Below are positions 42,001 through 48,000 of a stretch of DNA of 64,000 bases, piece after piece; the first letter of the stretch is position 1, and every line of letters begins with the position of its first letter. Made by a program: the position numbers. Source of the stretch: Myxococcales bacterium (GTDB lineage: Bacteria; Myxococcota_A; UBA9042); NCBI GenBank assembly GCA_947491025.1, contig CANLIC010000023.1, positions 3,322 to 67,321 of the forward strand, in the 5' to 3' direction.

Positions 42001-45000
42001 AGGCCGCCTTGCGCAAGGCCGCCATCGAATCCTTCACGGCTTCGGGCCCCTGGCCGCCGCCGAAGATCGCCGAGCCGGCCACGAACCAGTCGACGCCCGC
42101 TTGGTACGCGGCCCCGATCGTCTCGACGGTCATGCCGCCGTCGATCTCGATTCGCAGGGCTGGCTGGTGATCGCGGCGCCAGCGGTCGAGCCAACGCACC
42201 TTGTCGAGCGTGCGCGGGCGAAAGCGCTGGCCGCCGAAACCGGGGTTCACGCTCATCACCAGCACGAAGTCGAGATCGGGCAAGATCGGCTGCAGCAGCT
42301 CGACCGGGGTGTGCGGGTTGAGCGCGACCCCCGGCCGCATCCCCAGCGCGCGGATCTGCGCCACGGTGCGGTCGAGGTGCCGGCAGGCTTCGAGGTGCAC
42401 CGAGATCAAGTTGGCGCCCGCCTTGGCAAAATCGGCCAGCAGCGCGTCGGGATCTTCGACCATGAGGTGGCAGTCGAGAGGCAGGTCCGTCGACCGCCGC
42501 AGCGAGGACACCACCGGCGGTCCGATCGTCAGGTTGGGGACGAAATGGCCGTCCATCACGTCCACATGGAGCATGACGTCGCCGGCGGCCGGGCCAGGTC
42601 CCGAAGCGGCCGCATGCACGGCAGCGGCGGCGTCGGCCAGCCGCGCGAAGTCGGCGGAGAGGATGGAAGGGGCAAGGGAGACTGGGCGGCCCATCGTGCC
42701 TCGCGGGGCGTGCATCTCGCACGCACCCCTTAGGGATTCTTGGCGTTGGGCGTCGGCGCGTCGAAGGCGCGTAGTGCGCTGCCACCGTCTGGGCTGCGGC
42801 CCCAGGACGCGCCCTCGAGACAGTCGCCTTCCTTCCAATCGAGCTGGTCGAGCAGGAGCCCGTCGCTGCCGAAAAAGGTCAGCGCTTCGGAGCTGCTCAG
42901 CCCCTTTTCGATGACCGGGTTGCCGAAGCCCTGGTCGTTGAAGAACACCACGAGGTAGCCAAGCGCCGGGATTTTGGTCCCCGCTGGCAGCGCCATCGCT
43001 TCGTCGAAGGTCTTGCTCTTGCTGTCGATCAAGCGCGCGCCCGAGAGGTCGACCGCCTCGGCGCTGCCATTGAAGAGCTCCGCCCAGTCCGAGCCGATCG
43101 GGTTGAAGCTGCCGTCGGCGATCGCCGCGCACACGATCTCGTTGAGCACGACGCCGGCCTGCGGCGGCCCCCCGTCTCCGCCATCGCTGGCGCACGCCGC
43201 GAGGCTCGGAAGGCACAGCATGGCCAGGACCCACGCCGTCGCTGACAGTGATCGCGTCGCAGCCACGCTTCGAAAAGGCTCGGCCATCTTCACTCCCCGG
43301 CCGCCTTGGCGTCAGCGTCGTCCGCTGCCGCGACTTCATTCGGCAGCAGCAGCAGCCACTGGCGTGGCAAGAGACCGAGCGCCTTCGCCTCGCCAAACCC
43401 AGCGCCGCGCGCCTCGGCGATGACGGTCTCGGCGTCGATTCGCTCCTGCATCGGCGGTCCAGGCAGCGCCGCGTCTGGCTTGTGGCCGGCGACGACCAGA
43501 ACGCCGCCGGCCTTCAGCCTCGCGCGTATCCGCTCGAGAGAGCCGACAGGCTCGGCGAGTTCACCGTATGCGTCGATCATCAAGATCCGGTCGAATAGGC
43601 CCGTGCCCGGTAGCTCGCCCTCGGCCACCGCGTGGACCGAGACGTTGCTCAGCTTGCTTGCCTGCACCCGGCCGCGCAGCTTCTCGACCACGTCGGCCTC
43701 GAATTCGACCGCAAAGACACGACCCTCTGGCCCGACTGCGGCGGAGAGGTGTGGCAAGAGATAGCCGTCGCCGCTGCCCCAATCGACCACGACGCTGCCC
43801 GGCCCGACGCCAGCGGCGGCGAGGAGCTGTGCCGGCAGCTGCCAGTTGTCGCGCGCCGGGTCTTCGGCCAGGGCCTCGATGCTGGCCCGGGTGCGCACCT
43901 TGCCGCGCCGGGCGCACCCACTCGCCAGCAGCGCAAGCGCCAACGCGCAAAGGGCGCACCAGAGGGCCGGCGCCGTGCGAAGCCAAGCCTCACCCGCACG
44001 CCGCTGGGGCGACACGACAAAGAGGGGACTCGCTAAGACCACGTCGAACCTCCTGCGATCGCAGTGTGCCCGAGGCCCGCCGCCTCGGGAAGGGCGCGCC
44101 GGGGTCCCGTTGCACCGATGCAGAAGATGCCGCGTGACGAATCGCTGGCCGGGTTGGGACGGTTTGTGCCATCCTGCCCAGCGCTTGGGCTCACCATGCC
44201 CGCCGACAGGAGCCGCCGATGTCCCGCCCGCAGCTCAACCGTGCACAGGAGGGCCGCTACCCGGCCCTGGTCGCCATCCTGAACCGCCGCCGCGAGGTCT
44301 TTGGCCTCTGCGACCGCGAGCTCGCCGAGCGTACGGCCAGCCGCTTTGGCGCCAGCAAGAACGTCAGTCAGATCCACCGCATCCTGCACCTCGACAGCGG
44401 CACGCGACAGGCGTACGCCGAGCAGCTCGCCAGCGTCGTCGACGTTGGGCGGCATGTCGCTCGATTGCTGATCGAGTTCGAAGACGAGCTGCTGCCGCTG
44501 CGCGTCCCGGAGGCGCCGCCGACGCTCGATCAGTGCAGCGAGGTCCTGCACGCCTACGAGCGCGACGAGGACATGTTCGCGCTGCAGGGCGCGATGCGGC
44601 TCTACGAGCAGAGCATGGGCCGCAGCGACCCAGAGAGCCTGCGCGTGCGCGCCGACATGAGCCTGCTGATCGGCAAGCTGGTGCGTTCGCACGGCAAGTA
44701 CCCCGGCTTCATCGATGACGCCTTGCGCTTCGTCGACGACAGCGTCGATCTGCTGATCGAGATCGGCGAGCTCGACGGCGCCGGTCCTGCTGGCCACGAT
44801 CTCGACGCCGCCCAGGTCGCCGCCGAGATCGAGCGCGCCACCATCTACCGCCGTCGCGGTCACCTCGACTCGGCGCTGCGCGTGCTGGAGGACTGCCGCA
44901 GCCGATTCGGCACCATCCTCGCCGCTGATGCGCGGCTCGATGGCAAGTGCTGGCATGGCTTCGGAGACTTGCACGAGCAGAAGGCCGTCATGGCCGGCGA

Positions 45001-48000
45001 CCGCGGCGAGCGTCACGCCATCGCGGCGCGCAACGCCTACCTGGCTGCGCTCGCCGCCTACGATCGAGTGGGCGACGACCGCTGCCGCGTCGACCGCCAC
45101 GCCGTCATCACCGACCTCGCCGCCCTCGACCTGCGTGGCGGCGACGCTGTGGCGGCGATCGCGCGCCTCGACGCCTTGGAGGCTGAAGGAGAGTTGGCGC
45201 CGACCGTGCAGGCGCGCTGCGACAATCGGCGCGCCTGGGCGGCCCTCAGCGTCGGTGATGAGGTCGGCGCCCAGCGCATGGCCAAGCGCGCCGCCGCTTC
45301 GGCGACCGCCTCGGGCGACGCCCTGCTGATGGCGATGGCCGAAGCGTTGCGCGAGGCGACCTACCGCTCGCTCGGAATGCTGCAGAAGGCCGAGGTCCAG
45401 CACGAGGCGCTGCTCGAGTGGGTTTTCCGCGACGGTGTGCGCCACGCCGAGGTGCTGCGACCGATCGTGGCCCGGGTGCGGGCCGAGCGCGCCGCGTTGC
45501 CTGACGGCAAGGTGCCGGATTGGGCGCTCCGTCTGGGCTGGCTGCTGCGCGCGTCCTGGCTGCAGGCGTTGATCGCCGTGCTGGCCATCGGCGCCGCAGG
45601 CTGCGAGGCCGCCCTGACGGCGGCCGGCGCCGAGTCCAGCGGTCGGCGCGAGTGGGCCGTCGGCGTCGGTGTGCTCCCGGACAGCGCTGGCACGGTGGAC
45701 GGCGCCCCGCCCGCCGAAGGCGTCGCAGAGTGGCACCACGCCGCCATCAAGCCGCTGGCGCTGCATGAGGTCTCCGACCCGAAGAGCGACCCGAAGAGCG
45801 ACCCGAAGAGCGACCCGAAGAGCGACCCGAAGCATCCCGGCGTGCAGCATGATGAGCCCGCCGGCAGCGACCCGAAGGACCCGGCTAAGGCCTGCACGGC
45901 GAGCGACCCGAAGGCCCCCGCCGCGAGCGACCCGAAGGCGCCCGCCGCGAGCGACCCGAAGGCGCCCGCTGCGAGCGACCCGAAGGCGCCCGCCGCGAGC
46001 GACCCGAAGGCGCCCGCCGCCAGCGACCCGAAGGCGCCCGCCGCGAGCGACCCGAAGGCGCCCGCCGCGAGCGACCCGAAGGCGCCCGCCGCGAGCGACC
46101 CCAAGGCACCGGCCAAGAGCGACCCCAAGGCGCCCGAAGACAAGTTGAGCTGCGCCGCTTGAACGAGGGTCGGTTGGCGCTCAGCCGCGAAGATCGTTTT
46201 GACTTCGCGATCATCCCTTGCAGCCTCGAGAAAGCATGGGATCTCCCCGGGGTGCACGGTCCTCGGGCAGCCCGACTCGCGTACCGCAGCCCGCTCTTCG
46301 TCGCTGCCCAGCGCCTCGCCGCCGCCCGCGCGGAGCAGACGCTCATCCTATCGGCGCTGCACGGCTTGATGGCGGACGAGCACTTGGTGCCTGGCCCCTA
46401 CGATGTCACCTTCTCGCGTCCGGAAGATCCGGTCGTCCAGCCCGCGACGCTGCGACGCCAAGCCGAGGCGCTTGGCTTGTTGCGGCCCAGCGCGAGGGCG
46501 CTCTACGTCTTGCCCGACGACTACGCCGCCCGGCTCGTCGAGGCGATCGGCGAAGGCGCGGCCTCGTCACCGAACCTGCTGCGCGGCATCGCGTTGGCCG
46601 ATCTCGCCGCGATGCGGCAGTGCTGCATCGAAGCGCTTGAGGGCGCTATCGACGCTCCGCGCTAGGGCCTCAGCCTGCGCTCAACCGCAAACGCCCGAGT
46701 CGGGTGTACTCCGAACCCTCCGGCCGAAGCTCGCTGCGAAACAGCTCCACCGCACGCACAGGGAACGTCTCGCTACGGTAGAGGCCATGGCTGGCGAGCC
46801 AGGCCGCCAACGCCCCGTCGTCCGCACCCCGCACCCGACCTACCGTAACGTGCGGTCGCAGTCGCTCCGCGGTCGGTGAGATCCCTTGCGCTTGCAGGCG
46901 CTTGTCCAGGGCCGTACGCAGCGCCTGCAGCGGCGTGTCGTCGCGCACGCCCGACCACAGCACCTTTGCGGCGCCGCGCGACGGAAAGTGGCCCACCCCC
47001 TGCAGCTGAAGGTCGAATGGCGCGACCGTCAAAGGCCGGGTGTCGCCGACCAGCGCCTCCGCCACGGCCAACGGCACGGCGCCGAGGAATCGCAGCGTCA
47101 AGTGGACCTGGTCGGGCAAGGTCCAATGCACGCCCGAAGGGCCCCATTGCAGCGTGCCGATGTCGTCGATCACCGCGTCCGAAGGGACGATGGCGTAGAA
47201 GAGCCGCAGCCCGGTCATGGCGCCGCCGCCGGCGTCAGCCGCCTCACCGGCGCACGCTTCACGTCCCGCCGCCATGCCCAATCATCGCCAGCGCCCTTGA
47301 CCGAGCTCCAGTCACACCTGGCGCCGTCGACGCTACGCGCACGCAACAAAGCAGCTTGACGCTGTCGGGCGGCATGCGCGGGCCTGACGTCGAGCTCGGC
47401 GCGCCGGGCTTGGGCGCGGCTGACATGGCGAAGGCGGCGGTCGCAAGGGTCCGGTTTCACGCCTTCGAGCTTGGGATTGGGGCCCATGGGCGTCAAGGCT
47501 CGGCCCGTGGGGCGGCGCCGACCTCTCTTGCGTGGCCGTACCCGTCGGGCCAAACTGGCCGCGCCGGCCTTCGCGCGCTGCGTACCACCGTCCCACCGAT
47601 AGGTTGACCTGCAGATGGCCTACCCAACCGCCGCCCGCAGCCTCTGTGACCATCTGCTCGACGTGCACAATCCCGCACCCCACGCAGGCGCGGCGGCCCG
47701 ACGCGACGTCTCCCTCGCCATTCAGGCCGTGCAACGGGAGATGCTGCCCATCGCCCGTTCGCTCGCGCACTCGTTCCGGCGCGATGGCCTCGACCCCACC
47801 GATCTGGTGCAGCAGGGCTTGATCCGGCTCACGCTCGCCGGCCCGCTTCGCGGACGCGCCGACGCCCCGACAGACGACGCCGCCGCTGGGCGCTACCTGC
47901 GGGTGGTGCTCAAGCGGTTGGCCATCGACCACAGCCGCCGCAAGCACGCCGATCCCTTGGCGCAGTCGGCACGCATTCAGCCCGGTGATGACGACCACGC

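Follow-up and report, generated by a model that had tools for sequence, protein, structure and literature searches.

A 64,000-nt stretch of Myxococcales bacterium DNA (GenBank assembly GCA_947491025.1, contig CANLIC010000023.1, positions 3,322 to 67,321; G+C ~70%), the whole of which we call the window, carries at 44219-46162 an open reading frame (ORF) whose product joins a helix-turn-helix (HTH) candidate, tetratricopeptide repeat (TPR)-like helices, an internal hydrophobic segment ending in a lipobox-like Cys, and a tail of repeated SDPK peptides. What kind of protein is this? A sequence-only reading had offered two answers, namely, a membrane-tethered one-component regulator, or a quorum-sensing receptor of the RRNPP kind that is fused to, or internally translates, its own pheromone precursor; all of its coordinates (the ORF, the Cys codon at 45602 and an in-frame GTG at 45512) proved correct, and both repeat arrays are present. 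We prefer the first answer, tentatively and at somewhat less than an even chance, in the form of a lineage-specific, single-copy, bitopic inner-membrane one-component regulator, because all 18 full-length homologues share the architecture, because the charges flanking the hydrophobic segment and the Cys residues of the tail fit a tethered protein, and because a palindrome conserved upstream of the gene would suit DNA binding. The protein is previously undescribed, belonging to no Pfam or NCBIfam family and having no characterised relative.

A search of 5.8 billion proteins recovered 18 full-length homologues (573-652 aa), with identities of 57-93% over residues 1-470 and 56-87% over the full alignment. 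An exhaustive phmmer search against 1.8 billion cluster representatives returned only the protein's own cluster and two fragments (P0020 and P0021), and no distant relatives. Counts given below out of 19 refer to the full-length homologues plus the window protein, and counts out of 21 add the two fragments. The full architecture was kept in 18 of 18 full-length homologues and in both fragments, always in the same order: a conserved N-terminal domain and superhelix, a RLGWLLRxxWL segment with 17-22 hydrophobic residues, Gly or Ala followed by Cys, a variable spacer, the SDPK repeats and an acidic end. None of the 18 ended ahead of the membrane segment. The features of the locus in the window are as follows.

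44110..44123, strand not assigned: palindrome TTGCACCGATGCAG, a candidate operator 109 bp upstream of the ATG (family consensus TTGCAC-NN-GTGCAA)
44208..44212, plus strand: Shine-Dalgarno sequence AGGAG, 6 nt 5' of the ATG (direct sequence reading)
44219..46162, plus strand: the whole ORF (P0001), 647 aa (read from the window sequence)
44261..44476, plus strand: candidate for a divergent XRE-like HTH, made of five short helices, residues 15-86 (AlphaFold2 and hhalign)
44525..45496, plus strand: TPR-like alpha-superhelix, predicted to be cytoplasmic, residues 103-426 (AlphaFold2 and Foldseek)
45530..45601, plus strand: signal-anchor or signal peptidase II-like segment RLGWLLR-ASWLQALIAVLAIGAAG, residues 438-461 (the sole hydrophobic segment)
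45602..45604, plus strand: Cys462, lipobox-like, after Gly or Ala (invariant in 19 of 19 proteins)
45605..45772, plus strand: disordered non-conserved spacer, residues 463-518 (alignment; AlphaFold2 confidence below 50)
45773..45832, plus strand: (SDPK)5, residues 519-538 (Tandem Repeats Finder)
45899..46136, plus strand: ~10 copies of the octapeptide ASDPKAPA, with Cys559 ahead of them (Tandem Repeats Finder)
46139..46159, plus strand: C-terminal DKLSCAA, which includes C645, the second Cys of the tail, and ends in small uncharged residues (homologue comparison)
46159..46665, plus strand: downstream DUF6884 (YaaA-related) gene, whose start overlaps the stop of the ORF by 4 bp (Pfam PF21818)

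The gene was present in 12 of 107 genomes of the same class, once in each, and all 12 belong to one GTDB family, of whose 14 sampled genera six were carriers. NCBI names two of the homologues as hypothetical proteins of Myxococcales or Deltaproteobacteria metagenome-assembled genomes (MAGs), and some others derive from TARA ocean assemblies. The family is thus restricted to uncultured marine and sediment myxobacterial (Myxococcota-like) MAGs.

As we picture the regulator, residues 1-430 would lie in the cytoplasm, where a divergent XRE-like HTH would be followed by a TPR-like superhelix that binds a ligand or partner. The single hydrophobic segment would anchor the protein with its N-terminus inside and its C-terminus outside, leaving an extracytoplasmic part of ~185 aa that is disordered and holds 5-21 SDPK copies, two Cys and a small apolar C-terminus. 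The HTH would bind TTGCAC-NN-GTGCAA ~100 bp upstream of its own gene, giving autoregulation plus control of the coupled DUF6884 gene where this is present. The SDPK tail would serve as an input or turnover module, recognised by an envelope partner or protease, and such recognition would set the activity or stability of the regulator. The C-terminus resembles a substrate of a C-terminal-processing PDZ protease, small apolar C-termini being a recognition feature of Prc/Ctp-type PDZ proteases; TcpP of Vibrio is controlled by a tail-specific protease and then RseP. Because the C-terminus is small and apolar, and by analogy with TcpP, we propose that the tail may be subject to regulated proteolysis.

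The candidate operator offers a concrete handle on DNA binding. Of 13 non-redundant orthologous loci, 11 have a 14-bp palindrome of the form TTGCAC-NN-GTGCAA, with no more than two mismatches, at 97-165 bp ahead of the ATG; 2000 shuffles put the probability of meeting one by chance within 400 bp at ~0.01 per locus. The palindrome is intergenic in every case despite differing upstream genes, and at L017 it is perfect (TTGCACGGGTGCAA). This conservation supports a putative DNA-binding role for the protein. A sigma-54 promoter was considered as another explanation of the palindrome and rejected, its half-site spacing being wrong by our reading of the sequence. The motif was also rejected as the mark of a global regulon: genome G000 has no exact site, 5 with one mismatch and 87 with two, where 0.09, 4.2 and 85 are expected, and none of the five one-mismatch sites has a clear promoter context. 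Because its genome-wide frequency is at chance, we take the palindrome to be a locus-specific site, as would be expected for an autoregulated local regulator.

One ortholog shows the palindrome in altered form. At L007 (genome G001), ~128 bp upstream of the orthologue, it takes the form TTGCATCCATGCAT, with a perfect inverted repeat, TGCAT-CC-ATGCA, at its core, and departs from the consensus by C to T on the left and G to A on the right. Such a symmetric half-site change would be the pattern expected of a dimer-bound site.

The sequence-only reading had called the N-terminus an XRE-like HTH, and here its claim stood in part. Residues 15-86 form the most conserved part of the family, and a full-length AlphaFold2 model built on the family alignment places helices there at 15-28, 32-43, 49-56, 63-73 and 78-86, with predicted local distance difference test (pLDDT) values of 58-81. 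For profile-profile comparison we gathered 29 genuine HTH_3 domains from related genomes as a reference set; hhalign aligned family residues 20-77 to HTH_3 positions 4-55 (52 columns) with P = 4.9e-4, while three other 100-residue slices of the protein, used as controls, gave P = 0.11-0.19, and none of 300 column shuffles reached the real score (22.4, vs. a shuffle maximum of 20.5). A PDB profile search with the domain gave a single match, a weak one (E = 1.3), to an XRE-family protein.

Several results weigh against a DNA-binding regulator. With hmmscan, neither the full protein nor six N-terminal 100-aa pieces matched any HTH family even at E values up to 10, and searches of the curated Pfam and NCBIfam models and of PDB sequences likewise gave no HTH match. 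The hhalign probability for the HTH_3 pairing was just 32%, and the alignment requires a six-residue insertion, SRFGAS, in the turn between helices 2 and 3. Modelled alone, the domain was poor (pLDDT 55), and Foldseek found no match for this isolated model. To these must be added the genome-wide palindrome count, which at chance level lends no support to a regulon, and the consideration that the palindrome could be a site for another factor. A divergent XRE-like HTH is thus plausible and not established.

The TPR part of the claim fared better. Where ~370 aa of TPR-like helices had been proposed, AlphaFold2 predicts an all-alpha superhelix of ~320 residues (103-426; pLDDT ~90, mostly above 90), and Foldseek against the PDB matched it with probability 1.0 to MalT domain III, the LGN/Pins TPR, KLC and designed CTPR proteins. 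The best structural match was MalT domain III (1hz4; E = 1.3e-4, TM-score 0.58 on the target). At the level of sequence, Pfam offered only TPR_14 (E = 0.19). Kinship with the RRNPP receptors in particular, which a Foldseek comparison with NprR, PlcR and AimR had been suggested to reveal, did not emerge: Rap proteins were among the matches at E ~1e-3, ranked below MalT domain III and LGN; none of PlcR, NprR or AimR was in the Foldseek top 50; a viral library yielded generic TPR and SNAP-like proteins only, and no AimR; and no sequence or profile match to RRNPP proteins was found in the PDB. Judged from the predicted model, then, the TPR call is right and the likeness to RRNPP receptors is generic.

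How the two halves of the protein are placed depends on the hydrophobic stretch at 439-470, the only one in the protein; AlphaFold2 predicts a helix at 434-467. In all homologues the stretch has an h-region of 17-22 aa, flanked by basic residues on the N-terminal side and by acidic ones on the C-terminal side, and L439, W441, L442, W447 and L448 are invariant. The lipobox-like ending that had been noticed in the window is a family trait, Cys462 being invariant in all members, with Gly or Ala at -1 in 21 of 21 sequences. From the flanking charges, the paired tail Cys and the small uncharged C-terminus we infer an N-in/C-out topology, with the tail probably in an oxidising compartment.

The suggestion that a pheromone precursor is translated internally did not survive comparison with the homologues. 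The in-frame GTG at 45512 (residue 432) is common only to the window and its 93%-identical relative, no in-frame ATG, GTG or TTG upstream of the hydrophobic segment is conserved across orthologues, and L001 and L008 have no in-frame start codon at all between residue 408 and the Cys. An internal start making a separate lipoprotein or propeptide was therefore rejected, start codons there being unconserved and, in some orthologues, absent.

The same segment is open to another interpretation, which we consider unlikely, and which could coexist with a regulatory function: that residues 438-462 act as a type II signal peptide, so that Lgt lipidates Cys462 and LspA cuts before it. The products would be an HTH-TPR protein on a 'signal peptide', releasable by a site-2 or signal-peptide peptidase, and a lipid-anchored SDPK-repeat lipoprotein. 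The invariant Cys with its small preceding residue speaks for this, as do the basic n-region and an h-region of the length typical of signal peptides, the disordered tether after the Cys, typical of lipoproteins, and the capacity of the two other tail Cys to pair, leaving Cys462 free; neighbouring genuine lipoproteins in the window have similar boxes (LAAC and ASGC). Bacterial lipoproteins, however, carry the signal peptide at the protein N-terminus, whereas this segment lies 437 residues in, and a literature search found no precedent for an 'internal lipobox'. Several homologues have unusual residues at -3 and -2 (LPAC, FPGC, NSGC, ANGC and TFGC), and the opening of the segment, RLGWLLRxxWL, does not vary as that of an ordinary signal peptide would, which suggests that the segment is part of the mature protein. 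We know of no case of a large cytoplasmic domain ahead of a type II signal peptide; if Cys462 were lipidated and cleaved, this would be the first such case known to us, and a new coupling of lipoprotein maturation to transcription-factor release.

The tail beyond Cys462 (residues 463-647) is disordered in the AlphaFold2 model, with pLDDT below 50, and gave low-complexity matches only in Pfam, NCBIfam and PDB sequence searches. Tandem Repeats Finder bore out both arrays that had been read by eye, with a 12-bp unit at 4.8 copies (45775-45832, 100% matches) for (SDPK)5 and a 24-bp unit at 9.9 copies (45899-46136, 94% matches) for the ASDPKAPA array. Across the 19 proteins SDPK occurs 280 times in exact form, and just three further units deviate, each by one mismatch; there are 5-21 copies per protein, with a unit spacing of 4-8 residues and varying spacer residues. 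In these units Ser is encoded in all six ways, Asp and Lys each in both, and Pro by three codons; since codon usage is so varied while the peptide is near-invariant, selection on SDPK acts on the peptide, and the idea that the repeat is kept for its DNA or RNA sequence can be rejected. Within the window the units are almost identical as DNA, which points to recent repeat expansion there.

Exactly two further Cys occur in the tail in 18 of the 19 proteins, and in both fragments, amid otherwise freely varying sequence; they probably form one disulfide. The final residue is Ala in 18 of 19 and Val in the other, and the last three positions are small and uncharged. No other SDPK cluster was found in the 4.46-Mb genome, so the idea that SDPK is a generic linker of the lineage was set aside. 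Literature searches on SDPK returned nothing relevant. It had been allowed that the repeats might turn out to be a mere variable spacer without processing; because the SDPK core is nearly invariant while copy number and spacers vary, the tail is instead to be seen as a functional module and not a passive spacer, though nothing found points to its being processed.

A further alternative, which we judge improbable, would dispense with DNA binding: the protein may be a membrane scaffold or adaptor, RodZ-like, whose N-terminal domain and TPRs recruit cytoplasmic partners and whose Pro-rich zwitterionic tail is a periplasmic spacer or envelope tether. The weakness of the HTH evidence and the lack of any regulon found favour it, LGN/Pins protein-binding TPR scaffolds are among the best fold matches, and the tail has a weak likeness to the TonB Pro-rich spacer (E = 2.7). 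It leaves the conserved upstream palindrome unexplained, however; the S-D-P-K order is conserved far beyond what a spacer would need; and there is no folded C-terminal domain to act as an anchor.

That the protein is instead a self-contained quorum-sensing unit of the RRNPP kind, its tail exported, cut to SDPK peptides, re-imported and bound by its own TPR domain, is very improbable, for although an HTH-like domain with TPRs is the RRNPP layout, Rap proteins are among the fold matches, and a strictly conserved repeated tetrapeptide with variable spacers resembles multi-copy propeptides (the unit varying between 4 and 8 residues, so that SDPK itself is what selection holds), the TPR match is generic, with MalT and LGN better and no PlcR, NprR, PrgX or AimR, there is no sequence relation, the receptor is predicted to be membrane-bound, no conserved cleavage sites flanking the SDPK units were seen in the 19 proteins, there is neither an internal start nor a separate peptide gene, and an identical SDPK signal in all genera would confer no specificity, unlike RRNPP pherotypes. 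A receptor fused to a pheromone precursor is thus unsupported: no homologue ends before about residue 430, no small exported-peptide gene is adjacent, and at the orthologue loci examined neither a distinct peptide gene downstream nor a truncated homologue turned up. Equally remote is a combined scheme in which Lgt and LspA would act at Cys462, the SDPK lipoprotein would be trimmed to peptides or recognised by a partner, and the HTH-TPR half would be freed as a transcription factor sensing SDPK peptides; were it true, receptor and signal would share one polypeptide, a Gram-negative RRNPP counterpart on a 437-residue 'signal-peptide extension'.

Orthologues have GGAG or GGAGG at the position equivalent to the Shine-Dalgarno sequence of the window. 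The long antisense ORFs are what high G+C usually brings with it, and a simple scan of 43950-46800 for a sigma-70 promoter and a terminator found none. The 4-bp overlap with the DUF6884 gene recurs at loci from several of the six carrier genera, and the DUF6884 gene is translationally coupled to the regulator gene through it. At nine of 12 complete loci a DUF6884 gene lies directly 3' of the SDPK-family gene; one subclade lacks it, with unrelated convergent genes in its place, so that across six different contexts the downstream gene is either DUF6884 or unrelated. The product of 46159-46665 scores 33.6 bits against Pfam PF21818 (cut-off 30 bits), and its CSLEK and LSALHG are intact versions of the CxxxK and LSAxxG motifs described for DUF6884, for which action on DNA lesions has been proposed (PMC11701544). 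We regard it as a putative YaaA-related DNA-binding or repair protein of the cytoplasm. A link to anti-phage defence was considered and dropped: PADLOC gave no match for the 647-aa protein and only a weak PDC-M57A match for the DUF6884 gene.

Other genes lie nearby. On the minus strand, 41990-44042 encodes a ribulose-phosphate 3-epimerase, a lipoprotein that bears a lamin-tail domain (LTD), and a class I methyltransferase whose lipobox is LLASGC, an exported or lipid-anchored S-adenosylmethionine methyltransferase being unusual; the same block of three is found upstream of the orthologue in L001. On the plus strand, 47615-51313 holds three coupled genes, for a divergent extracytoplasmic function (ECF)-like sigma factor (Sigma70_r2 E = 1e-4; TIGR02937 29.9 bits, below the cut-off), a 339-aa protein without an assigned family, and a Lon_C protease that lacks the ATPase and is fused to helical repeats (a weak PADLOC CARF_LON match). 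A 7-kb island joining this trio to the ORF was entertained and rejected, the trio being absent beside orthologues. A protein of 1004 aa, encoded at 51533-54547 on the minus strand, combines Cys-rich CTDC repeats of the Dictyostelium type with an InhA-like MAM domain; in L001 a 2078-aa CTDC-repeat protein lies directly upstream of the SDPK-family gene. At L003 and L004 (one genus) the orthologue is preceded by a 509-aa protein without an assigned family, an M48 peptidase (no other protease was found near any family member) and an ankyrin-repeat protein.

Membrane-tethered one-component regulators are already known as a kind. What has no characterised relative is the way in which an XRE-like domain and a TPR superhelix are combined with a lipobox-like anchor and with a disordered tail built on one tetrapeptide; literature searches on XRE/TPR membrane-bound factors returned nothing relevant. 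The tail is moreover an unusually clean case of short-linear-motif selection in a bacterial envelope protein.

Set beside known systems, the protein resembles each in part. With bacterial lipoproteins, and with the enterococcal pheromones that come from lipoprotein signal peptides, it shares the basic n-region, the 17-22-aa h-region, the small residue before Cys and the disordered tether; it differs in that its signal-like segment starts at residue 438 and is often atypical at -3 and -2. MalT, with its domain III, and the soluble XRE-TPR regulators likewise join a sensor superhelix to a DNA-binding domain (a candidate one in our case), but the SDPK protein is without the STAND ATPase and LuxR-type HTH of MalT, while MalT is without a membrane anchor or extracytoplasmic tail. 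The RRNPP receptors (PlcR, NprR, PrgX and AimR; also Rap) have the XRE-type HTH, here a candidate, followed by a peptide-binding TPR superhelix; they are soluble proteins of Firmicutes and phages with a separate small propeptide gene, whereas the present family is membrane-anchored, occurs in Myxococcota-like MAGs and has no such gene adjacent. RodZ has an N-terminal XRE-type HTH that binds MreB, one membrane-spanning helix and, in the periplasm, a disordered stretch rich in Pro, all of which have likely counterparts here, the HTH again as a candidate; RodZ, in contrast, lacks TPRs, ends in a folded DUF4115 domain and is near-universal in rods, while the SDPK family is confined to six genera and the 647-aa protein has no Pfam match to HTH_25 or DUF4115. 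Regulators of the ToxR/TcpP/CadC type, finally, have a DNA-binding domain at their cytoplasmic N-terminus, cross the membrane once by a helix and carry functionally important Cys residues in the periplasm, a layout that the SDPK protein would share with its XRE-like candidate domain and its tail Cys. The protein has no Pfam match to Trans_reg_C or any other winged HTH, and its N-terminal domain is all-helical in the AlphaFold2 model. Where those regulators have an OmpR-type winged helix and a folded periplasmic sensor, this family has an XRE-like candidate, a 320-aa TPR superhelix and a disordered repeat.

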